Source of the DNA: a virus | Virus record (IMG/VR): IMGVR_UViG_3300027927_000003 | Span: 1-64,000 of that record | Length of the DNA: 64,000 nt | Direction: 5' to 3' (one strand) | In this document: piece after piece, positions 6,207 to 54,346 of the stretch | Layout of the letters: each line of letters opens with the position of its first letter | How positions within the stretch are numbered: position 1 is the stretch's first letter | The notes under the pieces: model-generated | Told to the model about the DNA's origin: nothing | Database searches by the model: none | What the model saw: only the letters and a program-made list of their open reading frames with translations | Position numbers and translations under genes: made by a program

Positions 6207-6234
6207 GAGCACGGTTTCAGGGGATCCCGTGCTC
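6207..6234 (-). terminator. hairpin downstream of the 83-aa gene
   Basis: GAGCACGG/CCGTGCTC 8-bp stem, followed on the minus strand by GGCTTTGAGCTTTC. Confidence 0.35.
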
Positions 6235-6243
6235 GACGTTCAA

Positions 6244-6495
6244 CTACCGCTTCGGTTCTACTACCTTGGTTCGGATCGGACCGAACGGTGAGTTCCGGAT
6301 CGCCCTCTCCCGAGTGAGGTCGATGTAGGGAGTGAACTCGCAGACCATGCACCTGGTGTGACTCAGGTTCCAGTCGTGGCCTTGCTTGCGACAGTCGTGC
6401 TCAACCGACTTAAGCCCCCGGACCATGAGGGCCACCATCGGAATGAACACGGCCATGAACGCGATGAAGCCGATGAGGATCTGGGTCTCAGTCAT
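6244..6495 (-). CDS. small membrane protein (83 aa)
   Basis: N-terminal transmembrane segment ILIGFIAFMAVFIPMVALMV. 8-nt overlap with the upstream gene. Confidence 0.7.
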   Translation of the reverse strand: MTETQILIGFIAFMAVFIPMVALMVRGLKSVEHDCRKQGHDWNLSHTRCMVCEFTPYIDLTRERAIRNSPFGPIRTKVVEPKR

Positions 6496-35660: not shown

Positions 35661-36473
35661 ATGGCTACCAGCGCGTTCGGCGTGGACCACGGTCTCGTCT
35701 CTAAGTCCTACGTCGGTGGTGGGGTGTTCAAGCCCGCCAGCGCGCTCCGCGCCGCTGGTAAGAAGCGGGTGCCTGGCTCTTACGCTCGGTCCAAGGGTCC
35801 GACCAAGGCAGACACGAAGTTCAAGGCAGAAGCCACCAAGCTCACTCAACAGTTGCGCCACAACGAGAAGGTGATGACCGAGCCTGGTCGTAGACCTCGT
35901 TTCGATGACCCAGACTTCAAGCAGGTCAAGGTCAGGGGTCAGCGCAAGCCGGTCAACGTGTACGGCGAGAGTTCTTTCCTCAGCCGCACTCTTCCCTCAG
36001 GGGTAGGGGGCCTTACTCTCCGCACCGGTAGCAAGAGCAGTGGTCAGAGCCATGTCATCTACGACAAGACCAAATCTGGTGCGAAGAAGACGCTGAAGCA
36101 CGAGATGGCACACGCTCAGCCCAAGCGCTCGATTTATCGGATGCAGCAGATCGCTGACAGCCCGAAGAAGACCATGCGTGAAGAGGCTAGGGCTGATGCG
36201 GTTCTGGGTCACTACCGGAAGGTCAAGCCGAACAGCGCATACCAGCAGGTTGCACAGGCGCGGAACACACAGAGGAAGGTCAGGAAGACACCGATCATCG
36301 GTGGGCTCAGGGCCAAGCCGCAGAAGATGCAGTTGAAGGCTGGGCTGAAGAACATGTCTGCTGCTGGTGGTCCTCGGTACAAAGTGAAGCCCAAGGACGT
36401 AGACGCTTACCGTAAGGTCCAGAACGACATCGCTCGCAACCAGAAGCGCAACAAGCGTAGGAGCCGCTCGTGA
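35661..36473 (+). CDS. SAFG-leader protein 1: basic protein with HExxH motif (270 aa)
   Basis: ATG at 35661 after AGGAGA. Starts MATSAFGVDHGLVSK and contains TLKHEMAHAQPKR ... REEARAD. Paralog of 53256..53903. Confidence 0.75.
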   Translation: MATSAFGVDHGLVSKSYVGGGVFKPASALRAAGKKRVPGSYARSKGPTKADTKFKAEATKLTQQLRHNEKVMTEPGRRPRFDDPDFKQVKVRGQRKPVNVYGESSFLSRTLPSGVGGLTLRTGSKSSGQSHVIYDKTKSGAKKTLKHEMAHAQPKRSIYRMQQIADSPKKTMREEARADAVLGHYRKVKPNSAYQQVAQARNTQRKVRKTPIIGGLRAKPQKMQLKAGLKNMSAAGGPRYKVKPKDVDAYRKVQNDIARNQKRNKRRSRS

Positions 36474-38305
36474 CCAGCAGAGTGCCTGAGGCTGACATCC
36501 TCTACCAGGACGACCTCGCGGAGAGCGCCGAGATCAAGGACGCCGGTCCCATGATCGAGATGGGCGTCACCGGCATCAAGCGTGCTGGCGGGTATGTCGA
36601 TGAGGAGTTTCTCCCGGCGCTGCGGGGCAGGAAGGCCGTCAAGGTCTTCAAGGAGATGTCCCAGAACGACTCGATGGTCGGCGCTCTGCTGTTCGCCATC
36701 GACAAGCTGATCCGGGAAGTGGACTGGAAGGTGATCCCTTCCGACCAGACTCCTGAGGGACAGGCTGCTGCTGAGTTCCTGGAGTCGTGTAGGGATGACA
36801 TGTCCCACTCCTGGGACGATTTCATCGGTGAAGTGCTCTCCATGCTCACCTACGGCTGGAGCTGGCACGAGATCGTCTACAAGCGCCGGATCGGTCCTTG
36901 GGAGAAGGACGGCAAGAAGAAGTCCAAGTACACCGATGGACTGTTCGGCTGGCGGAAGATGCCAATCCGCTCGCAGGAGACCATGATGAAGTGGGTCTTC
37001 GATGAGTCGGGCGGGATCAAGGCGATGACCCAGATGGCCCCACCGCACTACAAGACGGTGAACATCCCCATCGAGAAGTCCCTGCTGTTCCGGACCAACC
37101 TGTCCAAGGGCAACCCCGAGGGCATGTCCCTGCTCCGTACCGCGTACCGATCCTGGTACTTCAAGAAGCGTCTGGAAGAGTTCGAGGCTATCGGTGTTGA
37201 GCGTGACCTGGCAGGTATGCCAGTGGCAAGAGTGCCCTCTGATTACCTCTCTGCGCCCAAGGGGAGCAAGCAGGCCAAGACCGTCGAGGCGTTCAAGAAG
37301 ATGGTCCGTGGTGTGCGTCGTGACGAGAACGAGGGCTTGGTGCTTCCCACTGCCTACGACCCGGACACGAAGCAGCCGCTGTTCGACTTCGAACTCATGT
37401 CGTCTGGCGGCTCTCGCCAGTTCGACACCACCGGGATCATCCAGCGGTATGAGCAGCGGATCCTGATGAGCGTGTTGGCTGACTTCATCTTGGTCGGTCA
37501 TCAGGCCAACGGGTCGTACTCTCTGCACACTGACAAGACCGGTATCTTCCGGGCGGCGTTGAACGCGATCACCAAGTCCATCGCTGACACGCTCAACCGC
37601 CATGCGGTGCCGAAGCTTTTTGAGGTCAACGGCTGGAAGCTCGATGAACTGCCTAAGTTCGAGCCCACCAACATCGACCCGCCTGACCTGAACCAGCTCG
37701 CCTCGTTCATCAGCGCTACCGCTGGTGCGGGTATGCAGTGGTTCCCCGATCCTGAGCTGGAGAAGTTCGTTCGGGACATCGCTCGCCTGCCTGAGATGAC
37801 CGATGAGACAGTGGACTTCAAGCGGGAGATGTACAACCAGCAGCAGGCGATGGAGTTCGCTGAGACTCAGATGAACGTGCTCGGCATGAAGCAGAAGGCC
37901 GAGATGACTGCGCAGGGCTTCTCTCCTGAACAGGCGCAGATGGCCTCGCAGGCTCAGACCCCGGACATGCGGGTGCAGGAGCAGCTCAACGAGGACGAGG
38001 CGCAGATGGCTCACATGCAGCATCCTGCGGGCCAAGTCGAGCAACAGCAGATGCAAGAGCAGATGGCCATGCAGAACCAGCCTGAGGAGGACTCCCCCGC
38101 TGCTCAGGCCCAGCATGAACGCGAGAAGGAGAAGATGCTCCTCTCCGAACAGCAGGAAGAGAAGCGCTTCGGGCGCGAACGCGAGAAGATGACTCTCCAG
38201 GAGCGGTTGGAGCAGGAGAAGTCCAAGCGCGAGAAGGAAAAACTGCGTGAGCAGTTGAAGGCACAGTCGAGGCGCAAGCCTCCGTCGAAGGGTGACAGGC
38301 GATGA
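36470..38305 (+). CDS. portal protein (Mu gp29/DUF935-like)
   Basis: 611 aa. Position and length fit a portal. N-terminal KVFKEMSQNDSMVGALLFAIDKLIREVDWKV pattern and a Q/E/M-rich C-terminal tail. GTGA-coupled start. Confidence 0.85.
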   Translation: MTSRVPEADILYQDDLAESAEIKDAGPMIEMGVTGIKRAGGYVDEEFLPALRGRKAVKVFKEMSQNDSMVGALLFAIDKLIREVDWKVIPSDQTPEGQAAAEFLESCRDDMSHSWDDFIGEVLSMLTYGWSWHEIVYKRRIGPWEKDGKKKSKYTDGLFGWRKMPIRSQETMMKWVFDESGGIKAMTQMAPPHYKTVNIPIEKSLLFRTNLSKGNPEGMSLLRTAYRSWYFKKRLEEFEAIGVERDLAGMPVARVPSDYLSAPKGSKQAKTVEAFKKMVRGVRRDENEGLVLPTAYDPDTKQPLFDFELMSSGGSRQFDTTGIIQRYEQRILMSVLADFILVGHQANGSYSLHTDKTGIFRAALNAITKSIADTLNRHAVPKLFEVNGWKLDELPKFEPTNIDPPDLNQLASFISATAGAGMQWFPDPELEKFVRDIARLPEMTDETVDFKREMYNQQQAMEFAETQMNVLGMKQKAEMTAQGFSPEQAQMASQAQTPDMRVQEQLNEDEAQMAHMQHPAGQVEQQQMQEQMAMQNQPEEDSPAAQAQHEREKEKMLLSEQQEEKRFGREREKMTLQERLEQEKSKREKEKLREQLKAQSRRKPPSKGDRR

Positions 38306-38718
38306 TCAGCGCGTTCGGCGTCGAGCACGGCGATGAGTTCAGCAAGCGCGAGAAAGACCCCAAGCGCGGCGGCAAGGCGTTCGGCTCTGCTGGGAAGACC
38401 GCTGCCGTGGTCGGTGGTGCTGGCGCACTACTGATCGGTCGTGGACGAGCGAACAAGATCGGCGCGGGTATCGCGCAGCGGATGGTGGGCCGTGCTCACT
38501 GGTCTGCTGGTCGAGCAGCGGAGATGCCTAAGGGCAAGCTCGCCAACGCTAGGTACACCTACGCTCGAAAGCTGGAAGACATCGCCAACAAGGGGCCTGC
38601 CAAGAACCAGGATGTTCGAGAGTGGGCTGGCCGTGCTGCTGTGGGTGGTGGCGCTGGCGGTGTCGCCGGTGGCGTGGTCTACGGGCGCAAGAAGCTCTCG
38701 GCCAAGGAAGGGCAGTAA
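38302..38718 (+). CDS. SAFG-leader protein 2: basic Gly/Ala-rich protein (138 aa)
   Basis: MISAFGVEHGDEFSK. ATGA overlap with the portal stop. Gly/Ala hydrophobic stretches GKTAAVVGGAGALLIG and AAVGGGAGGVAGGVVYG. Confidence 0.75.
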   Translation: MISAFGVEHGDEFSKREKDPKRGGKAFGSAGKTAAVVGGAGALLIGRGRANKIGAGIAQRMVGRAHWSAGRAAEMPKGKLANARYTYARKLEDIANKGPAKNQDVREWAGRAAVGGGAGGVAGGVVYGRKKLSAKEGQ

Positions 38719-41700: not shown

Positions 41701-42270
41701 CAGAGCGCATTGCAGGCAGTTGGTAACGACGCTCCACTGGAAGAGAAGTTGAAGAAGATCGGTCCTGACGGGATGGGCTTCGACACCAGCAACGCTGGCG
41801 TGGTTGAGCTCGTGGAGAAGCCTGACATCTTCGACCGGGTGGTTGAGGATGTTCACCGGATGCGGGCGCTGAACCTGAACCGCAAGGTCTCTGAGGCTGG
41901 CGACATCCAGGTCTCTGTACGCACTGGTAGCGCACGAGAGGAAAGCAGGGAAGACCTCACCTTCGACCGCGATGAGCTGAAGCACCGAGCTGACATGATG
42001 CGAGCAGCGGCCAAGCGCGCTACTAGATCCAGCCGGGCGACTCTGGCTCGTAGGCTCGAAGACGACGCCAACACCATCGAGGGGCTGCTCTCTGAGGGCT
42101 CTGCCGCTGGCCCGAGTGATGTACGGATGGCGCTGGAGCAGACAGCACAGTCGTATGAGACTGCTCAGAAACTGGTCGAAGAGGTAGCGCGAGAGGCGAT
42201 GAGCAACACTCGCGGCCTGGAGCGAACTCGTCGGTACGAGGACGACAAGACGAAGAAGTACGGTGAGTAG
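38722..42270 (+). CDS. very large virion-module protein of unknown function (1182 aa)
   Basis: Uninterrupted high-GC3 ORF between the portal and MuF genes. No catalytic motif that I can assign. Confidence 0.85.
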   Translation: MVLTPIIKSDDPHFNHRAAQLAAEAVMKMDEDEARIFTSFVVSDVLEEDIEKNLRTLQRRLDTVVAKRIERVKKALISTTVSKGAADQEALAYAQALSALEEISKANPYDYGYRFDENDFRRDPKTGQFQTKIKHTQRRPISDRDARVVGIDQGAPGSEKRKIYNKLSREAKAQYQDEYRQISNFLGAVYQSTKNPGDTDVMVHVQGKDGSRRIVRPTGMKVELGQDYNPEQERIIGVAARPKGLNLGGASFGLTSALGAPQGRRSVEALNRAEDNFGTFSNDWTKPGDNNSNTRLYNRVAGGSKFVEQVAPYGSKLQIAGAFGRIVGEHGQEAEKVFGPATRKAGYRYRGTEKKPDTELLNSYRREVGIATRPDRLTDEDQKKIRSAQSQAELQERERKWREINEGQDTIPGRGKFTPLQEVTLSREEKGAIRTKIRDAYVKQKMEEAGPTETGIEAGRAVLLQHLQERMPDKDLYELHLDAGNTPPSEGFLIDRHGQIHAQAVGYGDDHYLPFNLKNLAALKGGEYIRTRSVGGPTSEDIYTGLMAGARRLTVTSRSGTFTINFEDDFRGGRRHNQKAHRMVRRYEQILDSVQSGSVERKDVNRDTKAMFRNEIERDYPALSDKAKREMLTTKIQEYKRDPIPTQDQEDALEQHIQAQTRGMPEPRARAIRQKILNDNANEREFFFHLNGVGYAAALEALREQFPYYITVEHVATVDPDRREFSRDKGYVEPGRNRPTQAKAGWHGTGTNKGEKVSASTVDYQNESGLYGVRTEAPKKVGEDEREAAAAKEKAAETKAENGEKDKEAATIAGRVQERKAAVKFKPEAMAIWKKISKETWGETPEQQQKVRANFPILFMDEKEAERSLEDPRVAKQLVDFVQTYRKELTTTGPQGQAAVLSYQDLTRFQAASGRIGRQPYDKATRFTSKEVPRFTETRSGARDAYKEDAPAEQVEKEAEVISEITKPTTTSKKLKEMSEAELLDELANLQNFQSALQAVGNDAPLEEKLKKIGPDGMGFDTSNAGVVELVEKPDIFDRVVEDVHRMRALNLNRKVSEAGDIQVSVRTGSAREESREDLTFDRDELKHRADMMRAAAKRATRSSRATLARRLEDDANTIEGLLSEGSAAGPSDVRMALEQTAQSYETAQKLVEEVAREAMSNTRGLERTRRYEDDKTKKYGE

Positions 42271-44597
42271 TGAGCGCACTCCCAGCAGAGGCACCGTCCC
42301 CTCCATGGGTTGAACTCCATGTTCGCCAGCCGCTCTCCCCACAGGAGCGGCTGGCGCTCGCTGCTCGAAACTCCTCAGCAGATCCGATCCTGGCCTGGAC
42401 TACCTCGCTGCTTGCCGTGCGAGAGGAGATCATTCCTCGGATCCGCAAGGAACTGGTAGACGTAGCTCTGCTGGATGAGACGGTGATCCGGCAGGCGCTG
42501 GATATCGCGTGGACAGCAGCGTTTCCGTCTATGCATCGAGCGACAGGGCCGATGATCGCAGAGGCGTACATCCGTGCCTTTCGTCAGGCCGAATCTGGTC
42601 AAGTGCCGATCCAGATGATCTACGCCCTGGCTGAAGAGCACGCTCGTCGGGTCGGCGGCTACTTTCACGAGACCTCATCGGATGCGCTGATCCAGGGCTT
42701 CAACACCTACGTGAACCGGCGTGTCCCACAACGGGCTGCGCTGGAACGGGTGCTTGATGCCTACGGTCTGACACCGCGACAGATGTCTGGACTGACCTCG
42801 GCCAAGCAGTTCGATGACAAGATCGAGTCCTCGCTTCCTCGTCGGATGAAGCAGAAGATGCTCTCCTACATCGGGAAGAGCATCCGTGATCGACTGAAGA
42901 TCTTTGCCAAGCAGGAGACGCACAACCTGGATGAGCAGGCCAAGCAGGTGGCTTGGATGTGGATGGTCCAGCACGGCAAGCTCCCTGAGACAGCGGTGAA
43001 GATGTGGCTCACCGCCAAGGATGAGAAGGTCTGTCCTGTCTGTGGCCCGCTGCATGGGATGAAGGTCGGGATCGGAGAGAAGTTCACCACCGACGACGGC
43101 AAGGAGTACTTCGTTCCCGGTGCTCACGTGAACTGCCGCTGCTCGGTGCGGCTGATGATCAACCCGTTCGAGTCGGTCAAGAAGGATCTGGAGGGACGGG
43201 AACTATTCGAGTTCAACCAGAAGCATCCGCGTGGTCAAGGTGGTCGGTTCGCTCGGAAGCCAGAGACCAAGACTGCTGACCCACGCAGGGTGGATCCCCG
43301 GGTAGAGCAGATGATCCGCGAGGCACAGAACCCTGGTCCTGAGCCTCAGCGACAACCACAGCGAGAGCCCACCGCTCCTGAACCGCTCCCGTACAAGGAG
43401 CCGGTGGCCCCTGCCCCTGGTCTGGAGGAGGCGCTGGCTGAGGAGCGGGAGCGGGCAGAAGCAGAGCGTCTACTGGCAGAGGCACAGCGCTACGAGAAGA
43501 AGCCACGAGCACTGGGACGACCACTCGGTCGTACTTTGGGTCGGCCTATCACTGGTCGTCCTGTCGGTCGGCCTATCGAGATCAAGAGCGAGGCTAGAGC
43601 GCTAGGCACGCCTGAGGGTGGTCGCGCTCTTAAGCCCAGCGTTCGTCCTGTGCCGGTAGAGGTCCAAGCGCGTGTTCGCGGTCTTCGGCCAGCAGAGGCA
43701 CGTCAGGTTGAGACTGCCCGCGCATATCTCGATGCTCGGAAGTTGTTTGCTCACTATCAGCAAGAGGCCGAACAGCGGATCGCTCGCAAGAGAAAGGTCC
43801 GCGAGGCAGAGCTGTACACGCCGGTCGCTCCGTTTGGACAGACCTCTTACTACATCGGTGACGACATCGTCATAAGCACGGCTCGGGACGAGGATGCCCC
43901 GATGGGCAAGGCTCAGTTCCGCGACACCCAGATGCACCCGCTGGACGAGGGAGAGCTGGCCCGACTGGTTCAGGAGAAGTACGAAGAAAACGTCAGCAAC
44001 CTCGTGGACGAGTTGATGTACGGCGAAGCGAACACCATCACCCGGCAGGATCCTGAAGTTCCTGGCCGGATGCTTCGGCATACTTTCACCGAGGAGGAGC
44101 TGGAGGGGATTCTCCAAGACGCTGGTATGTCGATGCTGCCTGGAGCGACACCAGGTGCCGCTGTAGAGATCGACTGGTACGACGAGAACAACGAGTTCGC
44201 TGAGATCAGCAACGCCTACTACCCAGATGAACTGGTGAAGAGCTTCTTCTCGATGGACATCGATAGTTTCGCTGTGAAGCTCTACGAGGCTGATGAGGGC
44301 TATGACACTGAAGACTTCGGGACGGAGTTCAACGGCAAGGCTTACACGATTGAAGGCCCCTTCCGGGTCGTCAGTGACTCCTATGAGAATACGTATGTTG
44401 CGCCGATGCGTCGGATCGTGGTTGAGCCCATCGTGGAGACCACGCTGCGTGAGACCACCGGCATCGAGCCTGAGGCTGAGGTCGTTGAGGACGAGGTGAT
44501 TCCCTGGCGCGAGGAGGACCGCAGAGCATCAGAGCGGAGAGCCTCAGAGGAGTGGGATCGCTACCGCAACAACAAACGTGACTGGCCCCATGCCTAG
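42270..44597 (+). CDS. MuF/SPP1 gp7-like head morphogenesis protein with long C-terminal extension
   Basis: KVCPVCGPLHGMKV ... GAHVNCRCSVRL is the Phage_Mu_F signature at about aa 250-295. About 480 further residues include GRPLGRTLGRPITGRPVGRPI. Confidence 0.85.
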   Translation: MSALPAEAPSPPWVELHVRQPLSPQERLALAARNSSADPILAWTTSLLAVREEIIPRIRKELVDVALLDETVIRQALDIAWTAAFPSMHRATGPMIAEAYIRAFRQAESGQVPIQMIYALAEEHARRVGGYFHETSSDALIQGFNTYVNRRVPQRAALERVLDAYGLTPRQMSGLTSAKQFDDKIESSLPRRMKQKMLSYIGKSIRDRLKIFAKQETHNLDEQAKQVAWMWMVQHGKLPETAVKMWLTAKDEKVCPVCGPLHGMKVGIGEKFTTDDGKEYFVPGAHVNCRCSVRLMINPFESVKKDLEGRELFEFNQKHPRGQGGRFARKPETKTADPRRVDPRVEQMIREAQNPGPEPQRQPQREPTAPEPLPYKEPVAPAPGLEEALAEERERAEAERLLAEAQRYEKKPRALGRPLGRTLGRPITGRPVGRPIEIKSEARALGTPEGGRALKPSVRPVPVEVQARVRGLRPAEARQVETARAYLDARKLFAHYQQEAEQRIARKRKVREAELYTPVAPFGQTSYYIGDDIVISTARDEDAPMGKAQFRDTQMHPLDEGELARLVQEKYEENVSNLVDELMYGEANTITRQDPEVPGRMLRHTFTEEELEGILQDAGMSMLPGATPGAAVEIDWYDENNEFAEISNAYYPDELVKSFFSMDIDSFAVKLYEADEGYDTEDFGTEFNGKAYTIEGPFRVVSDSYENTYVAPMRRIVVEPIVETTLRETTGIEPEAEVVEDEVIPWREEDRRASERRASEEWDRYRNNKRDWPHA

Positions 44598-44619: not shown

Positions 44620-45657
44620 ATGAGCAGGGTTGCGAAGCGGCTTTACGCCACAGACGAGACGTTCCGTGAGGTTGCCGACCTGCTTTTCGGTGGAGGAGCT
44701 GACGAGCTGGTCTCCAAGCTCTCCCCCAAGAAGGAGGAAGCAAAGCGTCAGAAGCGACAGGCTCAGGTCGGGCTCGCTTCTAACGTCGTAGGGATCACCG
44801 CTGGTACGGCGGGGCTCTCTGCTGCCCTGAAGGACGAGCGACTGAACCAGGGCGGCAAAGTCGGTCAGAAGCTCTACCGGATCGGCACCGGTATGGAGAA
44901 CGCAGCCAACAAGACCAAGATCGGTGGCAAGTACTACAAGTGGGTGGCCAAGCCTGGTGTCGCACCCAAGCTTGCCGCTGGTGCTGTCGGCCTCCAGACT
45001 GCGAACCTCGCTGGCGATGCGGTTGCCAACCGGGTGCTGTCTCGGGAGTCGAAGAAGAAGGTCTCCAAGCGCGGTGGTCGGCTGGTGCCGATCTCCAAGG
45101 CTGAGCCTGGCTCCTCTGATGTCCACTCTCTGTCCGCTGGCAAGCTGAAGCGGATCGCTACCCAGAAGGTGCTCAACGAGACCCCTGAGGTCGGTGGCAA
45201 GGTCAAGCAGTTCGTCCGAGGCAAGAAGAAGGCTGAGGTCACCAAGTCGATCACCTGGGAGGGCGAGATCTCCAAGGTGGACGCCGACAAGCGTCAGGTG
45301 TTCGGCTGGGCCTCCATCGTGGAGATGAACGGTCAACCTGTAGTTGACCTTCAAGGTGACTACATCGATATCGATGAGATCGAGAAGTCCGCATACGACT
45401 ACGTGGTGAAGTCTCGTAAGGGTGGCAACATGCACCTGCGCAACGGGACCGAGCCGGTACATGTCTCGGACATGATCGAGTCCTTCCTCGTCACTCCGGA
45501 GAAGAAGGAGAAGATGGGGCTGCCTGAGTCTGTACCTACTGGCTGGTGGGTCGGCTACCAGATCAACGACGACGAAGCCTGGAACCTGGTTAAGTCCGGT
45601 AAGCGGACTGGGTTCTCTATCCATGGTCGCGGGCAGCGGACCCCGACAGTCATCTAG
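44620..45657 (+). CDS. XkdF-like putative prohead protease with basic N-terminal extension
   Basis: The C-terminal domain ISKVDADKRQVFGWASIVEMNGQPVVDLQGDYIDIDEIEKSAYDYV ... MHL ... MIESF matches my memory of Peptidase_S78_2 (XkdF). The N-terminal ~215 aa are basic and Gly/Ala-rich. Confidence 0.75.
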   Translation: MSRVAKRLYATDETFREVADLLFGGGADELVSKLSPKKEEAKRQKRQAQVGLASNVVGITAGTAGLSAALKDERLNQGGKVGQKLYRIGTGMENAANKTKIGGKYYKWVAKPGVAPKLAAGAVGLQTANLAGDAVANRVLSRESKKKVSKRGGRLVPISKAEPGSSDVHSLSAGKLKRIATQKVLNETPEVGGKVKQFVRGKKKAEVTKSITWEGEISKVDADKRQVFGWASIVEMNGQPVVDLQGDYIDIDEIEKSAYDYVVKSRKGGNMHLRNGTEPVHVSDMIESFLVTPEKKEKMGLPESVPTGWWVGYQINDDEAWNLVKSGKRTGFSIHGRGQRTPTVI

Positions 45658-45666
45658 GAGAAGAAA

Positions 45667-46023
45667 ATGATTATCTCGGCTTTCGGGGTAGAGCACGGTG
45701 ACTTCATCAGCAAGGCTGATGAGCCGAAGTACAGCTCTGGTCGTCGCAACCTGGCCACCATCTACGGGCCTACTCACTCGATATACGCAGCGAAGAAGGG
45801 CAAGCGCGCTCGCTCCTACGGCAGATCGCTCGGTTACCAGACCGCAGGAGCTGGCGCTGGCGGCGCTCTCGGCGCTGGTATCGCTGCGGCTGCCACCCGT
45901 GGCAAGAGTGGCGGCGCCATGATGGGTGGCGGAATCGCTGGTGCTCTCGGTGGTGCCTACACCGGGAACAACCGAGCTTTCCACGCGAACAACAAGCGTG
46001 GTTACTACAAGCGCGAGGAGTGA
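45667..46023 (+). CDS. SAFG-leader protein 3: basic Gly-zipper protein (118 aa)
   Basis: MIISAFGVEHGDFISK. AGGAGAAG SD. GAGAGGALGAGIAAAA and GGAMMGGGIAGALGGAY. Confidence 0.75.
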   Translation: MIISAFGVEHGDFISKADEPKYSSGRRNLATIYGPTHSIYAAKKGKRARSYGRSLGYQTAGAGAGGALGAGIAAAATRGKSGGAMMGGGIAGALGGAYTGNNRAFHANNKRGYYKREE

Positions 46024-46025
46024 AC

Positions 46026-48509
46026 ATGCTTAGCGCGTTCGGTGTCGATCACCACTTCGAGGTCTCTAAGGCTGACGAGGTTAAGCGGCCTGAGGACAAC
46101 ACGAAGAGGAACGTCGCTATCGGCGCTGGCGCTGCTGGTGTTGGTGGAACGGCTGTCCTGGCTGGTACGAAGATGCCAGAGCACTCTCACTACTCCCGGA
46201 AGACTCGGAAGTACCTCAACTCGCTTCCTGCTGGGGTCCACGAAGTGGATACCAAGATCCTGGCCAAGAAGCCCAGGAAGCTTGGTGCTCGTAAGCAACA
46301 GGCTCCCTACGTGGCAGCGATGGCACAGGAGCGTCCCACGCCGTACTCACCTGTCCCGATCACTCGGTACAAGGACGGCATCATCCAGCGTGACAACGCG
46401 CACTCGGTGATGGCGAACAACATGAAGGGTCGCAAGACCACGATCAAGATCGAGGACGCGGATGGCTACCGCCCGTCTCGTCGTACTGGTGAAGAGCTGG
46501 TCCGTCGCGCTCAGAGCCGCTACCAGCAGAGCCGACTGAAGCGGCACACGAACCTCTCTGAGAAGAAGATCGAGGGGATCAGGGCTAAGTACAAGGACAA
46601 GTCGCGGATCGCCAACACCACCAAGCGACCGCATGGTGTGGTCGAGGAAGGCTTCAAGGTTGCTCAGAAGCCGTTCGGCGTCAAGCGAGCGCTGAGTTTC
46701 GCCAAGGCCGATGACCGGAATCGTCAGCGTGCTGCTGGTGCTGCTGCGGTTACCGGTACCGGTGTACTGGCGTCCACACCAGTACGACGGTCTGCTGCCA
46801 AGGTGGACATCAACAACGGTCAGATCAAGTCCTCAGACGCCAAGAAGATCGTCAGTCCTGGCTACCGACCTGGGAACAAGCGAGCCATCCAGGTGATGGC
46901 TCGGAACCTGGGTCATCTGGAGAACAGTCCTTCCACCGTGATCCGGTACAAGGACGGTTCCGTCATCCCTTTTGACGGTAACCACCGAGCCACTGCTCGT
47001 GTCGCTCGGGGCGACAAGAGTGTTCCGGTGAAGGTGGTTGAAGGTGGCGAGCGCCCTGCTATCAGCGCTGCTCGAAACGCATATCACGTTGCTGGGCAGC
47101 GGCTCCATCGAGCGCGGATGAACCGTGATGCTTTCAAGCCGACTGCTCGTACTGGTAAGCACGCTGGTGAGTCCAAGGTCTACTCGCGTGTAGCGAATGC
47201 CTCGCCGCTGCGCTCTGGAAGTCGAGTCGATATCGGATCGACCAAGCTGGCATCTGGTCCGACCAAGACCATGTTGCGTGGGAGGCAGGCAGCGACTGTC
47301 GGCACCGGTGTCGCGCTGCTCGGTACTGCTCAGCATCTCAGCTCGAAGAAGGAGAAGGTCGGTAAGTCTGCCAAGCCGCTGTCTCCAACTGAGATCAAGG
47401 ACAAGAAGCGCAAGCAGTCACGGATCAGCCAGGCTACTGGTGCTCTTGGTCTGGCTGCTCTAGGTGGAACTGCGCTGTCTACCCGTGGTGGACAGAAGGC
47501 ACTGGCTACTGGGTTCAAGCGGATCAATAAGCCGGTGCCCAAGAGTTTGCAGGCTCCAAAGCGTGAGAAGGGGATCAGCTCAACGGTCACGCCGTTGCTG
47601 GCTACCTCTGCTGGTCTTGGTGCTCTGGGTTCGTTCAACTTCGCCTCGTACACCCGGGCCGAAGCAGATAAGGGGAAGAGAGTGAAGAAGAACAACTACG
47701 GTGGCTACGACCACGGCAACGTCTTCGGCTCAACCACGATCTCCAAGGCTATGGAGGAGGAGATCGAGAAGTTCAAGGTTCCTGGCTCGGTGCTGAAGCC
47801 GCTCAACGCAGCCAAGCCGAAGGTGATGGGTGCGAAGAACAAGGCTCAGGCCATGGGCTCTGGTGCCAAGCACGGCTTCAAGGTTGGCCCGAGCGCGGCG
47901 ATCCCGGCTCCGATGAGCCAGTCCTTCCAGCGTGGTGCCCGAATGGGGCAGCAGGCCAACAAGGGTCTGACCTCTGCGAAGACCTTCGCCAGCCAGAACA
48001 AGGCTGCCATCGGTGCTGGTGCTACCGCTGGTGTCGCCGGTGGTCTGGTCGGTAGCCAGATGAACAAGCCGAAGCCTGGCACGATTGTCCGCAAGGAGTA
48101 CGACCCTGAGGGCAAGCGGATGAAGCGTGCTGACAACTACGAGCGGGCTGGGTACGTCGGTGCTGGTCTGCTCGGAGCTGGCGCTACTCACCAGGGTGCA
48201 AAGGCACGTAGGAACTACAAGAGCGCCAAGCCGATCAAGGCTGTGGGGATCTCCAATCTCGAACTCGGTACCAACAAGTCCAAGAAGGCTGCCGCTGAAG
48301 AGGCGTTCGATGTCTTCAAGCCTTCGGAACTGAAGCGTGCCAAGGTCGCTGGCAGGAAGGCTGCTATCCCTGCTGCGCTGATGGGCACTTCTGCTGTTGG
48401 TGCTGCATACGGGGCGAAGAAGATCGGAGACAAGAAGAAGGAAGGCGGGTCTTGGTCTCCATATGTCGCCAAGTCCGCAAGCTCTGCTTTCGGCATTGTT
48501 CATGACTGA
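46026..48509 (+). CDS. SAFG-leader protein 4: 827-aa basic multi-repeat protein (alternative GTG start 46020)
   Basis: Starts MLSAFGVDHHFEVSK and ends ...SSAFGIVHD. At least 8 Gly/Ala hydrophobic segments separated by Lys/Arg-rich linkers. Two RYKDG ... D(G/N)xH repeats. Confidence 0.8.
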   Translation: MLSAFGVDHHFEVSKADEVKRPEDNTKRNVAIGAGAAGVGGTAVLAGTKMPEHSHYSRKTRKYLNSLPAGVHEVDTKILAKKPRKLGARKQQAPYVAAMAQERPTPYSPVPITRYKDGIIQRDNAHSVMANNMKGRKTTIKIEDADGYRPSRRTGEELVRRAQSRYQQSRLKRHTNLSEKKIEGIRAKYKDKSRIANTTKRPHGVVEEGFKVAQKPFGVKRALSFAKADDRNRQRAAGAAAVTGTGVLASTPVRRSAAKVDINNGQIKSSDAKKIVSPGYRPGNKRAIQVMARNLGHLENSPSTVIRYKDGSVIPFDGNHRATARVARGDKSVPVKVVEGGERPAISAARNAYHVAGQRLHRARMNRDAFKPTARTGKHAGESKVYSRVANASPLRSGSRVDIGSTKLASGPTKTMLRGRQAATVGTGVALLGTAQHLSSKKEKVGKSAKPLSPTEIKDKKRKQSRISQATGALGLAALGGTALSTRGGQKALATGFKRINKPVPKSLQAPKREKGISSTVTPLLATSAGLGALGSFNFASYTRAEADKGKRVKKNNYGGYDHGNVFGSTTISKAMEEEIEKFKVPGSVLKPLNAAKPKVMGAKNKAQAMGSGAKHGFKVGPSAAIPAPMSQSFQRGARMGQQANKGLTSAKTFASQNKAAIGAGATAGVAGGLVGSQMNKPKPGTIVRKEYDPEGKRMKRADNYERAGYVGAGLLGAGATHQGAKARRNYKSAKPIKAVGISNLELGTNKSKKAAAEEAFDVFKPSELKRAKVAGRKAAIPAALMGTSAVGAAYGAKKIGDKKKEGGSWSPYVAKSASSAFGIVHD

Positions 48510-48547: not shown

Positions 48548-49345
48548 ATGGCACCCAGACCAGCACGCAAGCTGACCAACATGGAGATCGATGAGATCTC
48601 CCTGGTGGACAAGGGCGCAAACCAGCACGCGATGATCACCATCGCAAAGAGGGCTCCCGAGGAGGAAACGATGCCCGAGTTCTACAACGAGGATGGACAG
48701 CTCCTCGCGGAGGACGCTTCTCTCAACGACGGCGACATCATCTACGACGAGGACGGTAACGCTTACGAGTTCTCGCTCGACGCCGATGAAGAGGTTGCCG
48801 AGGAGCGTGAGCCCGAGCCTGTCGGCAAGTCCGCTTTCTTCAACACTCCCGCACCGCGCAGCAACTTCGCTGCTCAGGTGATGGAGGAGCTGTCGAAGGC
48901 ATACACCGATGACGACCGTGACGCGGTGATCGCCAAGGCTCTTGGCCGGGTCGAGGAGCTGGAGAACCAGTACTCCCAGGCCGAGCTGATCGCCAAGTCT
49001 GAGCGCGACCTTCGTCTCACCCGTGAGTACATCTCCAAGGCAGCCGAGTACAACGTGCCGGTTGACCCCGAGGAGCTTGGCCCGGTGCTCTACCGGATGG
49101 CCGAGACCATGGACTACGACGACTGCGCCGTGATCGCCAAGGCCCTCGAAGGCTCTGGCGCGATGATCATGGACGAGATCGGCTACATCGGTGGTGGCGA
49201 CAACAGCGATGTGATGAGCCAGGTTGAGCTTCACGCTCAGCAGGAGTTCGGTAAGAGCGTTGACGCAGAGAGCATCACCAAGGTGTTCGACATGTCTCCG
49301 CAGGCGTACGACGAATACCTCGCGTCACAGCGGGGCGGATACTGA
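48548..49345 (+). CDS. scaffolding protein (acidic, 265 aa)
   Basis: Lies between the protease and capsid genes. Acidic and helical. The N-terminal EIDEISLVDKGANQHA motif is recalled from protease/scaffold families. Confidence 0.7.
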   Translation: MAPRPARKLTNMEIDEISLVDKGANQHAMITIAKRAPEEETMPEFYNEDGQLLAEDASLNDGDIIYDEDGNAYEFSLDADEEVAEEREPEPVGKSAFFNTPAPRSNFAAQVMEELSKAYTDDDRDAVIAKALGRVEELENQYSQAELIAKSERDLRLTREYISKAAEYNVPVDPEELGPVLYRMAETMDYDDCAVIAKALEGSGAMIMDEIGYIGGGDNSDVMSQVELHAQQEFGKSVDAESITKVFDMSPQAYDEYLASQRGGY

Positions 49346-49789: not shown

Positions 49790-50782
49790 ATGCCTAACCC
49801 CACTCAGTCTGATCTTCACATCAACGTCCCGCTGACGAATGTGTCGATTGGCTACATGATCGACCGTAAGGACTTCATCGCGGACAAGGTGTTCCCGCGT
49901 GTCCCGGTCAACAAGCAGTCAGACCTGTACTGGAAGTACCGCAAGTCGGACTGGCGTCGTACTGACGCTCAGCGTCGTGCGCCTGGTACCGAGACGGTCG
50001 GAGCCGGTTGGAAGACCGACACCGGGCAGTACTACTGCCACGTCTACGGTGTCCACAAGGATCTGGATGACCAGACCCGGGCCAACGCCGACTCCTTCTG
50101 GAGCCTGGACAAGGACGCCACGCTGTTCGTCACCAACCAGCTCCTGCTTCGTCGGGACATCGACTGGAACAACACCTACTTCAAGCCGGGTGTCTGGGCC
50201 ACCGATCAGGCTGGCGGTACTGACTTCGACCCGTGGAACGACGTGGCCTCGGACCCCATCGTCCAGTTCGCGAACCTCCAGACGGAGTTCATCCGTCAGT
50301 CGGGTCGTAAGGCCAACACCCTGGTGCTCGGTGCCAACGCGATCACCACGCTGAAGAACCACCCCGACATCATTGACCGCATCAAGTACACCCAGCGCGG
50401 TGTCGTGACCGAGGATCTCCTCGCCTCGCTCTTCGATGTGGACAAGATCCTGGTCAGCTACGCGACCCAGGAGACCTCGGGCCAGGAGTTCGCCAACGGT
50501 CAGCAGCAGGACGACAACGCTGACTACCAGTTCATGAGCAACTCCAACTCGGCGCTGCTCTGCTACACCCCGTCTGCTCCGTCGCTGATGACCCCTGCGG
50601 CTGGCTACATCTTCACCTGGAACGGTTACCTCGCTGGTAACCAGTACGGCATCCGGATGAAGAACTTCCGCATGGAGCACATCGCTTCTGACCGGATCGA
50701 GGGTGAGATGACCTACGACATGAAGGTGGTCTCTCCTGAGATGGGCGTCTTCCTGTCCGATGTCAACGGCGTTACCCCGTAA
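49790..50782 (+). CDS. major capsid protein (lambda gpE-like family)
   Basis: 330 aa with no delta domain. Its position after scaffold and decoration genes and its sequence style match the Phage_cap_E family, from memory. Confidence 0.85.
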   Translation: MPNPTQSDLHINVPLTNVSIGYMIDRKDFIADKVFPRVPVNKQSDLYWKYRKSDWRRTDAQRRAPGTETVGAGWKTDTGQYYCHVYGVHKDLDDQTRANADSFWSLDKDATLFVTNQLLLRRDIDWNNTYFKPGVWATDQAGGTDFDPWNDVASDPIVQFANLQTEFIRQSGRKANTLVLGANAITTLKNHPDIIDRIKYTQRGVVTEDLLASLFDVDKILVSYATQETSGQEFANGQQQDDNADYQFMSNSNSALLCYTPSAPSLMTPAAGYIFTWNGYLAGNQYGIRMKNFRMEHIASDRIEGEMTYDMKVVSPEMGVFLSDVNGVTP

Positions 50783-50862: not shown

Positions 50863-51141
50863 ATGTACTCAGCGTTCGGTGTTGAGCATGGGGAGGGGTT
50901 CTCCAAGCGTGCCCCGTCCCTGAAGGCGCTGCTGTCCCCGTACAAGGGTGGGGTGCCTAGGAACGCGAAGCGGACTCCTTCTCTGGAGAACCGCCTTGCT
51001 CCGTACAAGGGAGCTGTCCCTAAGTCCAAGGGGATCGATCAACTGAACCCGGCCAACCGACCGCTGACCATGAAGCTCCGCTCAGCACGTCGGAACGCTG
51101 CTTTCGGTAGGCAGCCCAAGCCTGGAGAGGCAATGCGATGA
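50863..51141 (+). CDS. SAFG-leader protein 5 (92 aa, basic)
   Basis: ATG at 50863 after AGGAGTGAAG. MYSAFGVEHGEGFSK. Internal repeat L(S/A)PYKG(G/A)VP(R/K). Confidence 0.7.
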   Translation: MYSAFGVEHGEGFSKRAPSLKALLSPYKGGVPRNAKRTPSLENRLAPYKGAVPKSKGIDQLNPANRPLTMKLRSARRNAAFGRQPKPGEAMR

Positions 51142-51473
51142 GTTACTCAGCGTTCGGTGTTGATCACGGTGGTGAGATCAGCAAGGGCTTGCCTAGCGCG
51201 CTGCGATCAGGTTATCGAGCAGGCTCAGGCACACAGGCAATCCGACAGAACAACCGGATCGCTGCTCACAAGTATGGTCGCGAAGCCGCGAGGAATCTGA
51301 GCGGTCAGAAGAACCCCAAGGCTGCGTTGCAGAATCCCCAGTGGGGTTCCAGTGCGCAGACTGCTTCGCATCGCATCCAGAGTGGCAAGACCCAGAAGGG
51401 CTTCTTCAGGCAGGGTCTGAGCGGTCCTGGCGGTCGCAGACTCAACAAGCCCAACGGATTCGGACTGGAGTAA
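51138..51473 (+). CDS. SAFG-leader protein 6 (111 aa, basic)
   Basis: MSYSAFGVDHGGEISK. ATGA overlap with the previous family member. Confidence 0.7.
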   Translation: MSYSAFGVDHGGEISKGLPSALRSGYRAGSGTQAIRQNNRIAAHKYGREAARNLSGQKNPKAALQNPQWGSSAQTASHRIQSGKTQKGFFRQGLSGPGGRRLNKPNGFGLE

Positions 51474-52839: not shown

Positions 52840-53259
52840 GTGAGCGTCTACGGGATTTCATCCCGCGCTCGTGACTACATCCGCAGGCGCGCCTCTTACA
52901 CCATGGAGGCGACCTGTCGGATCGAACGGGTGCTCCCACCTGTCTTTGACCAGACCTCAGGCAGGGCTACATCTGGCTCGCGTACGACGATCTATGAAGG
53001 CAAGTGCCGGATCTGGGAAGTCAACGCTGGTAGTGGCGTGGTCAACATCGGTGACGACGACATCTTGATGCCCACTACCCAGCTCTCCTTGCCTTGGGAC
53101 ATCGATCCGATTCCTGATCGCAAGGACCAGGTGCTGATCACTGATCACGACTCAGACTCTTCGATGATCGGTCAGCGGTTCGAGATCCAGTCTCACGTGA
53201 AGGCCGGTGACCTCCGAGCAACCCGGCGCTTCACAGTCCTGGGATTCGATCAGCGATGA
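52840..53259 (+). CDS. head closure/stopper protein (SPP1 gp16-like)
   Basis: 139 aa. The pattern C.I ... G ... LSLPW ... D.VLI ... FEI and its position fit this family. Confidence 0.65.
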   Translation: MSVYGISSRARDYIRRRASYTMEATCRIERVLPPVFDQTSGRATSGSRTTIYEGKCRIWEVNAGSGVVNIGDDDILMPTTQLSLPWDIDPIPDRKDQVLITDHDSDSSMIGQRFEIQSHVKAGDLRATRRFTVLGFDQR

Positions 53260-53903
53260 TCAGCGCATTCGGTATTGAACACGGGGTCATCAGCAAGTCG
53301 ATGATCAAGCCTGGTGTGTACCGGGCTGCCTCTTCATTGTCTGGTGCAGAGCGCACAGGCTTGAAGGCTGGCATCAAGCAGGCCAAAGCAGGATACGCTG
53401 ACGACATCTTCCCCACGCGGTACAACCGCACAACTAAGCAGCCACTTGGACATGCCCCAAGCGCCAACGCCTACGGCGGTCGAAAGCTCCATGGCAAGAA
53501 TGGTCCTCGGTGGGGCGAGAACAGGGTGGAGTGGAAATCGCCTACTGATCCAGGTGCTAAGACCACGCTGACAAACGGTGCTGACTCCACCGCAGGTGGC
53601 AGGGCGTTCGCCACCTCTAATCGCGGGACTGGCGTGATCCAGATGTATGGGAAGCCCGGAGGCACGATCAAGGGCACGCCTTCTTCTGAGGTACTTCGTC
53701 ATGAACGGCGACACATCGCTCCCAAGCGCAACCCGGTCCGTTGGCGAGAGCGCAGGGCCAGTGATCTAGTACGCGGGCGTGAAGAAGGGCGTGCTGACTT
53801 CGGTGTTCCTCGTGACCATGAGTATGGAGGCAGCCCTGAGTTCCGCGCAGGCTATGAAGAGGTACAGCGCAAGATGGCTGCGGCGAGACGGAGGAAGCAA
53901 TGA
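53256..53903 (+). CDS. SAFG-leader protein 7: basic protein with HExxH motif (215 aa)
   Basis: MISAFGIEHGVISK. ATGA overlap with the stopper gene. EVLRHERRHIAPKR ... REEGRAD. Paralog of 35661..36473. Confidence 0.75.
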   Translation: MISAFGIEHGVISKSMIKPGVYRAASSLSGAERTGLKAGIKQAKAGYADDIFPTRYNRTTKQPLGHAPSANAYGGRKLHGKNGPRWGENRVEWKSPTDPGAKTTLTNGADSTAGGRAFATSNRGTGVIQMYGKPGGTIKGTPSSEVLRHERRHIAPKRNPVRWRERRASDLVRGREEGRADFGVPRDHEYGGSPEFRAGYEEVQRKMAAARRRKQ

Positions 53904-54346
53904 GCAGCGTTGCTTCCGCTGACATCTACCGGCTCGCTGAGGCGATGCGGGAGTCTGCTGGTGGCGCTGAGATCACCACACAGAATGTGCTGGTCCACTC
54001 GGCCAACTACATCAAGTCAGACATGGAGGCGCGTGCTCCTGTCCGTACTGGTCGGTTGCGTCAGTCGATTGAGATCAAGGTAGCCACCAACAAGGTGATC
54101 ATCGGCCCCAACACCGAGTACGCCGCCTACGTGGAGTTCGGCACCAAGCCACACGTGATCTTGCCGAAGAACAAGAAGGTGCTCGTCTTCAACATGGGTG
54201 GGCAGAAGGTGTTCGCCTCTAAGGTGAACCACCCTGGCACCAAGGCTCAGCCCTATGTTCGCCCTGCCTTCGAAGCTTGGGTGGATACTCTTGGCGCGTT
54301 GGTCGCTGAGGCCAACATCAAGAGGTTGGAGGAGGCGTACAAGTGA
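53900..54346 (+). CDS. HK97 gp10-like neck/tail-completion protein
   Basis: ARAPVRTGRLRQSI ... YAAYVEFGT is the HK97 gp10 family signature. Confidence 0.8.
   Translation: MSSVASADIYRLAEAMRESAGGAEITTQNVLVHSANYIKSDMEARAPVRTGRLRQSIEIKVATNKVIIGPNTEYAAYVEFGTKPHVILPKNKKVLVFNMGGQKVFASKVNHPGTKAQPYVRPAFEAWVDTLGALVAEANIKRLEEAYK

Follow-up and report, generated by a model that had tools for sequence, protein, structure and literature searches.

The open reading frame (ORF) at 46026..48509 on the + strand of IMG/VR virus record IMGVR_UViG_3300027927_000003 encodes an 827-amino-acid (aa) basic protein, which we lean towards reading as a capsid-internal cargo protein of an uncultured tailed phage, that is, a chain of modules loaded into the head by a short peptide tag and processed by the prohead protease. 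The analysed stretch, referred to as the window, comprises positions 1 to 64,000 of the record and is a phage genome of ~60% GC. The protein is an in-frame fusion of two genes, here called gene A and gene B, that are adjacent but separate in most relatives. It is tagged at both ends because an N-terminally tagged gene was joined to a C-terminally tagged one. Both of its folded modules belong to the ParB/sulfiredoxin (Srx) superfamily. The order of the chain is most likely tag, Gly/Ala segment plus degenerate ParB/Srx module A, Gly/Ala segment plus ParB/Srx module B with a DGNHR motif, module C1, variable module C2 and tag.

As an earlier note on this DNA had it, 46026-48509 is open on the + strand and translates into 827 aa. 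The longest form of the ORF begins at GTG 46020 and gives 829 aa. Judging by its context, ATG 46026 is the better start, because the resulting M-L-SAFG fits the M-x-SAFG spacing of 165 of the 194 distinct N-terminal tags in the clade described below, and because GGAG is found 8-9 nucleotides (nt) before it, with the stop of the upstream gene immediately before. The protein has an isoelectric point (pI) of 10.65, a net charge of +97, 14% Ala, 11% Lys and 11% Gly, and zero cysteines. No Pfam or PHROGs family could be assigned to it.

The N-terminal tag, MLSAFGVDHHFEVSK (aa 1-15; 46026..46070, +), consists of a SAFGVxH core followed by hydrophobic-S-K, with a putative protease site after K15. The C-terminal tag, SASSAFGIVHD (aa 817-827; 48474..48506, +), is preceded by VAK (48465-48473) and followed by the stop codon at 48507-48509, so that the protein ends in YVAKSASSAFGIVHD. 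The C-terminal copy is kept in relatives, which end in SWEPYAKRDTSAFGVSHD, in SWATYSKSATSAFGVMHD or, in ~10 further cases, in similar sequences; the tag at both ends reported in the earlier note is thus genuine. A six-frame scan of the 64-kb window for [SA]AFG[VI]xH gave 8 copies, all on the + strand. Seven of these are ORF N-termini (starting at 35661, 38302, 45667, 46026, 50863, 51138 and 53256), and the eighth is the C-terminus of the 827-aa protein; the chance expectation for one copy within this protein is ~5e-5. The eight copies use differing synonymous codons, which argues for selection on the peptide and not for a DNA repeat. A nucleotide-level element, such as a start-associated or ribosome-binding-site repeat, was ruled out by these synonymous codons and by the C-terminal occurrence.

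The tag is also found well beyond the window. A degenerate DNA pattern for S-A-F-G-[VIM]-[DE]-H-G matched at least 117 IMG/VR stretches, many of them with 2-4 matches within a few kb. Homologs of the head genes of the window are present in 97 of the 117 tag-match stretches listed, with major capsid proteins (MCPs) that are 50-91% identical, and the tag therefore belongs to one uncultured clade. This clade spans at least 100 IMG/VR contigs and has 5-8 tagged proteins per genome, encoded in the head gene cluster only. In 125 related loci we counted 339 tag instances, of which 277 are N-terminal, 29 lie within 8 codons of the stop and 33 are placed otherwise. The last class includes internal copies flanked by VSK/ISK on both sides, as in KKKVSK-RDTE-SAFGVEHG-EVSK-LFG. 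The logo of the N-terminal tags reads M-x-S-A-F-G-[V80/I20]-[D58/E38]-H-G83-x-[IV]-S-K-[AGS], with the first Lys 5 residues after the His in 104 of 194 tags, while C-terminal tags have a hydrophobic-x-Lys 0-4 residues upstream. A conserved hydrophobic-x-Lys adjoins every tag and sets it apart from the rest of the protein. The SAFGVxH core always lies either no more than ~3 residues from the end of a chain or flanked by two candidate cleavage sites. Net charge is positive in each of the distinct N-tagged ORFs of the clade (190/190; median +11.6 per 100 aa), and 61% have a Gly/Ala segment. A literature search gave no paper with the motif or describing such a tag.

An internal degenerate tag copy, also pointed out before, could be located at aa 561-575 (YDHGNVFGSTTISKA; 47706..47750, +). 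Of the tag it retains the distal half only, the one with the putative cleavage site, [FY]G...hydrophobic-S-K-A, with putative cleavage after K574, and the related protein P0002 ends here. The half-tag is kept at the equivalent place in relatives (PEYGEVAKAW and PTFGEEGFSKAW). The motif hydrophobic-[SA]-K is found at five sites in the protein, at aa 13-15, 79-81, 225-227, 572-574 and 814-816. Four of them are placed after the N-terminal tag (13-15), at the boundary between modules A and B and followed by ADDRNR (225-227), in the half-tag (572-574) and before the C-terminal tag (814-816).

Homolog comparison explains the tags at both ends. We found 14 metagenomic homologs of the protein, with no named function and no Pfam domains. 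Most of them (at least 10) are 455-473 aa long and end at the equivalent of aa ~455. These correspond to gene A (~460 aa), which in most relatives holds the N-terminal tag and the two ParB/Srx modules. Gene B, of about 230-320 aa (252-318 aa in contigs L001, L004 and L008), is collinear with aa 452-827, and the order in syntenic contigs is MuF, protease, gene A, gene B, scaffold, cement and MCP. Gene B is without an N-terminal tag, and a C-terminal tag is seen in nearly all sampled members of the 21-protein B family, whose C-termini read [ST]W.[PS]Y.K, 0-4 residues and then SAFG[VI].H.

The fusion junction lies at aa 440-460 (SKKEKVGKSAKPLSPTEIKDK; 47343..47405, +), where a relic AAGGAG is seen and where stop and start codons overlap in relatives; no in-frame stop or start codon is found at this junction in the window. 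Four independent fused versions are known, namely the protein of the window, P0002, P0015 and P0020, all with the same junction and with differing linkers. That the 827-aa ORF arose as an error of assembly or sequencing, say through loss of a stop codon or through a frameshift that merged two real genes, we find hardly credible. The two separate genes in most relatives would fit such an artefact, but the other three proteins are independently fused across the same junction, each with a different linker, larger fusions are common in the B family, the junction is in frame and the sequence downstream of it is conserved.

Boundaries within the chain also shift between relatives. P0020 starts at the position matching aa ~228, and P0015 has its tag linked straight to module B; these ends mark the boundary between modules A and B at FAK (aa 225-227; 46698..46706, +), a putative cleavage site followed by ADDRNR. 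P0002 has an internal tag preceded by a 140-aa extension, and its end falls at the half-tag (aa ~575). The fusions and the shifting boundaries together make the protein a four-module chain (A, B, C1 and C2) in which the module borders fall where genes begin or end elsewhere, and at hydrophobic-x-Lys motifs. Module C1 (aa 456-574; 47391..47747, +) comprises the conserved start of gene B, with a basic helix and Gly/Ala segments 4 and 5, and module C2 (aa 575-816; 47748..48473, +) is a variable, low-complexity basic region that ends in a conserved SW.PY.AK. Modules A and B are found only in a subset of the tag-bearing viral contigs, C1 is more widespread, and C2 was undetectable by BLAST in these contigs. 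Fused B-family proteins have a hydrophobic-x-K just upstream of the conserved B-module start, as in PVSK/ARLMSDAEIK, SVSK/AGRVMSDAEIR and KVHK/SERIMSDAEIK (the slash marks the junction).

Two further arrangements of the tag were seen in relatives. In the B-family proteins P0030 and P0043 the C-terminal B tag is followed by a hydrophobic-x-K and then by another basic Gly-rich module, which places one tag between two cargo modules. Contig L001 has an orphan tag-coding mini-ORF at 6207 (SGESAFGIQHGGEISKASRAQESTLVE followed directly by a stop), ~200 nt upstream of gene A at 6415, which may stem from duplication of the tag, from a frameshift or from faulty assembly.

Module A (aa 49-205; 46170..46640, +) is a degenerate ParB/Srx-like domain with RDNAHS (46389-46406) in place of DGxHR, and it is the best-ordered part of the AlphaFold2 (AF2) model, with a predicted local distance difference test (pLDDT) score of 66-90. 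Module B (aa 252-372; 46779..47141, +) has the ParB/Srx fold with PGYRPGN (aa 278-284) and DGNHR (aa 317-321; 46974-46988). The ParB-like repeats of the two modules are PITRYKDGIIQRDNAHSVMA (aa 111-130) and VIRYKDGSVIPFDGNHRATA (aa 305-324), and profile-profile alignment of module B (aa 246-372) with module A (aa 50-210) in hhalign gave a probability of 92% and an E of 5.5e-7. DGNHR (D317-G318-N319-H320-R321) and the PGYRPGN loop are invariant in module B in 15 of 15 sequences, and DGNHR aligns with DGVHR of SbnI and DGMHR of the protein P0023. In module A the Arg of DGxHR is replaced, and only one of the repeats therefore looks potentially active. The ParB/Srx-like repeats of the earlier note were thereby borne out as to fold, through fold searches, profile searches and the ParB_N link of P0023, with the qualification that module A is degenerate and has lost the arginine.

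The AF2 model of module B has a pLDDT of 68.5 and the order strand-helix-helix-strand-strand-helix-strand-helix. In a Foldseek search against the PDB, 44 of its top 45 matches were sulfiredoxin, KorB, ParB, Noc, SbnI, Atu1540 and 1vk1 (Pyrococcus furiosus), the best with E 7e-3 and probability 0.99. Among the BFVD viral structures, ParB/Sulfiredoxin and ParB-like nuclease proteins dominate the named top matches (best E 1e-3). In the full-length AF2 model only aa ~50-200 and ~256-345 are ordered, both regions share the same order of secondary structure, and a fold search with this model matched only the ParB/Srx superfamily. The fold-search probability for the module B and full-length models reaches 0.99-1.0. 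Searching PDB sequences with the module B profile gave SbnI (ParB/Srx fold) as the best match, on ...DGxHR...G..VPV, with an E of only 0.71.

An exhaustive HMMER search of 1.84 billion representatives matched only 8 proteins, and the family is therefore tiny; a word-indexed profile search with module B gave four fragments only. One HMMER match, P0023 (1135 aa), has Phage_Mu_F and ParB_N above the Pfam cut-off and a second ParB_N-type copy. In BLASTP, module B matches both P0023 copies (38% identity; E 4e-6 and 5e-5), and module A matches the Pfam-validated copy (E 2e-5) with RDNAHS opposite RDGMHR. P0023 is encoded at 952-4359 of L248, a small unrelated contig, and has Gly/Ala segments too, with MVAGGVLVGTAAALVT ~55 aa before its second domain. 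As similar segments are found in a protein of an unrelated contig, the segment-plus-ParB unit may be older than the tag system. Sulfiredoxin function was rejected for the 827-aa protein, since without Cys it has no catalytic Cys of FG[GS]CHR. As to a canonical partition ParB, KorB or Noc, no helix-turn-helix (HTH) family was detected, 1-3 helices are predicted after each core, and the gene is surrounded by head genes and not by parA.

The protein has eight uncharged runs rich in Gly/Ala, each 11-19 aa long, at aa 30-48, 236-251, 422-435, 470-486, 524-537, 660-677, 711-721 and 783-794, far above the count in 2000 shuffles (mean 0.72, maximum 4). The flanks of every run contain 2-6 K/R per 12 aa, which agrees with the at least eight segments with Lys/Arg-rich linkers noticed earlier. 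On the + strand, segment 1 is encoded at 46113..46169, segment 2 at 46731..46778, segment 3 at 47289..47330 (where gene A ends in most relatives), segments 4 and 5 at 47433-47483 and 47595-47636 within module C1, and segments 6-8 at 48003-48056, 48156-48188 and 48372-48407 within module C2. A comparison with homologs had been set beforehand as a check, and both position and composition of the runs are conserved among them. Matching segments are also present in the tagged proteins of 138 and 118 aa and in the N-terminal extension of the protease, as had been claimed for leader proteins 2 and 3 and the protease N-terminus. Six of the eight segments have a small-xxx-small-xxx-small motif, (G/A/S)xxx(G/A/S)xxx(G/A/S). 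Their mean hydropathy over 17 residues is 1.0-1.7, below or at the usual transmembrane range. In the full-length AF2 model most segments have a pLDDT <50 and no predicted helix, and helices are modelled over segments 3 and 4 with a pLDDT of roughly 43-71. The segments would most likely act as flexible self-association or spacer elements within the internal protein mass.

We propose that the tag is an address peptide that would bind a procapsid component, which could be the shell interior, the scaffold or the protease, so that the basic proteins co-assemble into the prohead; the 827-aa chain would load by either end. The XkdF-type protease would then cut after the Lys of the flanking motif, with K15, K227, ~K448, K574 and K816 as candidates, which would remove the tags, separate the modules and release module B. 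The basic fragments would remain on the packaged DNA and exit together with it at infection. By analogy with other ParB/Srx domains, module B might in the host bind nucleoside triphosphates and nick or clamp DNA, or it might shield the genome as it enters. A signal for encapsidation, later cut off by the prohead protease, would best explain the tag because of a five-part pattern: the tag sits near a chain end or between cut sites, it occurs on basic proteins only and in the head cluster only, it is co-inherited with one set of MCP, scaffold and protease, and a tag-like element is present on the protease itself. More tentatively, and at somewhat less than even chances, SAFG[VI]xH with hydrophobic-x-Lys could be a self-contained, position-independent and protease-removable cargo-loading cassette, by which polyproteins are loaded by either end and cut into delivered effectors.

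Three other readings have to be set against tag-directed cargo loading. The protein might be a membrane-active ejection or conduit protein in which Gly-zipper helices form or line a DNA channel in the host membrane while the ParB-like domains hold the DNA end. This appears rather unlikely to us, even though the eight conserved uncharged segments have basic flanks of a positive-inside-like kind and six of them the small-residue motif, module C1 as the most widely conserved module resembles a helical hairpin (segments 4 and 5), and AF2 places helices over segments 3 and 4. With their hydropathy and their lengths of 11-19 aa most segments look too short or too polar to span a bilayer, and most have low pLDDT and no predicted helix; these values do not favour the Gly-zipper multi-helix or conduit-forming idea of the earlier note. 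The same segments occur in the protease extension and in the small tagged proteins, which argues for a role inside the capsid. Moreover, the phage is siphovirus-like with a 2069-aa tape measure, and in relatives lysozyme and peptidase domains are part of the tape measure; the DNA channel is usually supplied by the tape measure protein. Doubtful to much the same degree is a purely structural DNA-condensing or inner-scaffold protein, whose ParB-like domains would be catalytically dead DNA binders with no action in the host. It would suit the uniformly strong positive charge of all tagged ORFs, the missing DGxHR arginine in module A, the predicted disorder of most of the protein and the DNA phosphate contacts made by lysines of T4 internal proteins (PMC3012670). 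Yet the invariance of DGNHR and PGYRPGN in module B argues for a conserved ligand or catalytic site over bulk charge, the occurrence of the ParB modules in only a subset of the clade points to accessory cargo and not core structure, and MuF, which is known to carry delivered effectors, occurs fused to a related ParB_N pair.

Less probable still is that the tag is no encapsidation signal and serves on a protein that acts in the infected cell, as a propeptide to be removed or as a motif recognised in some other process, such as zymogen control, the binding of a chaperone or the timing of degradation. The virion location is read from gene context, one relative has a tagged ORF fused to a connector-type protein outside the capsid lumen, and the distal tag half is similar to both the protease domain's first strand (EGEISKVD) and the N-terminus of the scaffold (DEISLVD), so that it may be a simple substrate motif. 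Against this, tagged genes are found only among head and connector genes and nowhere else in the window, the tag is confined to a clade that shares one set of MCP, scaffold and protease, its core lies near a chain end or between candidate cleavage sites as is typical of docking peptides, and the protease is itself a prohead-internal enzyme. On balance, the part of the earlier note that saw a polyprotein or internal DNA-associated protein is retained, given the two-gene fusion, the boundary motifs and the basic ORFs of the head cluster, and its Gly-zipper multi-helix part is not favoured.

Several points weigh against a tag-loaded, protease-processed ParB/Srx cargo. The placement of the tagged proteins in the virion is read from their gene context, and the shell interior, the scaffold and the protease are candidate partners of the tag only. 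We know of no cleavage specificity for XkdF-type proteases. In a protein so rich in Lys, the hydrophobic-[SA]-K motif is no commoner than chance predicts (5 observed, ~4.4 expected); the count was dropped as a statistical argument for cleavage, and therefore only positions and conservation are informative. The fold searches gave weak E-values (1e-3 to 4e-2) and TM-scores of 0.3-0.55 from a model with a pLDDT of 68, and AF2 gives no structure for the tags, the Gly/Ala segments and aa 510-827. No direct match to Pfam ParB_N (PF02195) or ddrB-ParB was found with the whole protein at E<=0.1. With module B of all 15 members at a Pfam E<=10 there was likewise no ParB_N, and a weak DUF6551 match was seen in 5 of 15 (best E 0.0055). 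Pfam support for ParB_N thus runs via P0023 only and the link is indirect, and the lack of a direct match makes the modules a divergent lineage of the superfamily. In L004 (14019-15551) a tagged protein and an HK97-gp10-like connector form one 510-aa ORF, the counterparts in the window being two genes at 53256-53903 and 53900-54346 with a 4-nt overlap; this fusion is hard to square with a strictly lumenal place for every tagged protein.

Megablast of the 44-50 kb region and tblastn of the 827-aa protein against 50,697 cultured phage records gave no match, and the best cultured MCP match is 42.5% identical (Microbacterium phage ValentiniPuff). ValentiniPuff and Arthrobacter phage Kovu both differ in the gene order of their head regions, which are without the tag. 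No host or prophage was found either, since a scan of 185,579 species genomes with the tag pattern gave no tagged-ORF cluster among the matches listed, which were isolated singles in unrelated phyla, consistent with chance.

The gene for the 827-aa protein lies within a head gene cluster in the order terminase, tagged protein, portal, tagged protein, 1182-aa protein, MuF (PF04233) and XkdF-type protease (PF14550). From the protease onward follow a tagged 118-aa protein, the 827-aa protein, a scaffold-like protein, a small cement-like protein, the MCP and two tagged proteins, and after these connector genes including one tagged protein, tail genes and the 2069-aa tape measure. MuF is a gene of its own (42270-44597), and the scaffold and MCP genes lie at 48548-49345 and 49790-50782. 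Numbered in order with the 827-aa protein as the fourth, the other tagged basic proteins, all on the + strand, are protein 1 (35661..36473; 270 aa, HExxH), protein 2 (38302..38718; 138 aa, two Gly/Ala segments), protein 3 (45667..46023; 118 aa, two Gly/Ala segments, immediately upstream of the 827-aa protein), protein 5 (50863..51141; 92 aa), protein 6 (51138..51473; 111 aa) and protein 7 (53256..53903; 215 aa, HExxH, a paralog of protein 1). All 7 tagged proteins of the window have a pI of 10.2-11.5, and MCP, scaffold, portal and MuF have one of 4.1-5.6. No Pfam or PHROG family was found for the tagged proteins, the 270-aa protein having been scanned against PHROGs only. Proteins 1 and 7 align over their full length, with HEMAH (36099-36113) and HERRH (53700-53714) at the equivalent position and then PKR...REE.RAD, and from these motifs they may be minimal zinc-metallopeptidase cargo.

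The XkdF-type prohead protease, the presumed processing enzyme, is encoded at 44620..45657 (+), with PF14550 at residues 216-340. Its basic N-terminal extension of ~215 aa contains Gly/Ala segments and the tag-like LLFGGGADELVSK (44680-44718), which is conserved in relatives. The protease also has the element VPISK/AEPGSSDVH at 45085-45126 (the slash follows the Lys), and P..SD[LV]H of this element is seen at the MCP N-terminus as well (PTQSDLHINVPLTN; 49799-49840) and after the first Lys of the proteases of relatives. The N-terminus of the scaffold-like protein, MEIDEISLVDKGANQ (48581-48625), matches the C-terminal end of the Peptidase_S78 and PHROG head maturation protease models and is followed by a conserved ITIAK/RAPEE; from this match the scaffold N-terminus looks like a relic of a protease-scaffold fusion. 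The 1182-aa ORF (38722-42270), between the tagged 138-aa protein and MuF, has no Pfam or PHROG family and is conserved (27-47% identity) in 22 related contigs. In L005 (12278-12760), and also in L006 and L007, an HNH endonuclease gene lies between scaffold and cement; the window lacks it.

Internal, ejected phage proteins are difficult to spot by their sequence, and to our knowledge almost nothing is known of how they are addressed to the capsid outside T4, P1, P22, T7, N4 and the jumbo phages. Here all strongly basic proteins encoded in the head cluster share a strict 7-residue core and a flanking Lys, at either chain end, in at least ~100 contigs. If this is a loading signal, virion cargo could be listed from sequence only, the loading mechanism would become testable, and a compact tag for packaging foreign proteins into phage heads would be at hand. 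The internal cargo manifest readable from the genome would then be 5-8 basic proteins, including ParB/Srx domain and HExxH peptidase-like proteins. The ParB/Srx cargo would also be an independent case in favour of what Iyer et al. (2017) proposed, namely that phage DNA is accompanied by ParB-type domains on delivery. Already known in kind are internal head proteins that are addressed by a tag and processed by a protease, and likewise ParB/Srx domains delivered via the head. New are a strictly conserved tag that has no earlier description and can be used internally or at either end, a candidate Lys-directed site linked with a protease of the XkdF type, a ParB/Srx cargo that would be tag-addressed instead of fused to MuF or a polyvalent chain, and a family of ~20 sequences without a curated model.

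In T4 a capsid targeting sequence (CTS), which is conserved, loads diverse basic internal proteins into the scaffolding core (PMC3012670). The SAFG tag resembles the arrangement in IPI, IPII, IPIII and Alt, where one short terminal peptide is found on otherwise unrelated basic head proteins, but it has no sequence similarity to the CTS, is far stricter (SAFG.xH is invariant) and also occurs C-terminally and internally, whereas the CTS is N-terminal only. The CTS is removed by the prohead protease under an L/I-x-E cleavage rule; here candidate cleavage is after Lys, and the protease is of the XkdF type (PF14550) and not gp21 as in T4. Encapsulin targeting peptides, at the C-terminus or, in some cargos, at the N-terminus, dock cargo inside an HK97-fold shell (PMC8346489). 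The SAFG tag shares this position independence, but the encapsulin consensus is TVGSL or GSL-type as opposed to SAFGVxH, and capsid binding is a proposal for the SAFG tag. We know of no encapsulin peptide that is cleaved off.

Module B has the fold and the DGxHR / GxxR phosphate-binding loop region of ParB, KorB, Noc, sulfiredoxin, SbnI/SerK and Osa, but unlike in these proteins no HTH or dimerisation domain was detected, and there is no ParA partner, no Cys and no SbnI-type kinase C-domain. The Dar proteins of P1, among them the ParB-type DdrB, undergo processing, are packaged into the head and are co-ejected (PMC5512222; PMC12810830). For polyvalent proteins delivered via the head, an NTP-binding, DNA-acting (nicking or clamping) role of their DdrB-like ParB domains has been proposed (Iyer et al. 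2017, PMC5512222). The 827-aa protein resembles them in having a ParB/Srx domain in a large multi-module protein among virion late genes and in its shuffled modular architecture, with two ParB-type modules and two further modules encoded between the prohead protease and scaffold genes. It differs in its lack of a Pfam ParB_N or ddrB-ParB sequence match, in its tandem ParB modules, one of them degenerate, and in its Gly/Ala segments. Polyvalent proteins often have a zincin metallopeptidase; this chain has no HExxH, which is found instead in two tagged neighbours. P1 loading relies on DarA/Hdf and not on a shared short tag. A further parallel is offered by the effectors fused to MuF (SPP1 gp7 / Mu F), a cargo of the same type that is delivered through the capsid. 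P0023, the nearest relative outside the family, has Phage_Mu_F and then two ParB_N-type domains and aligns to both ParB/Srx modules. Here MuF is a separate gene, and the ParB protein would be addressed to the head by its tag and not by covalent fusion.

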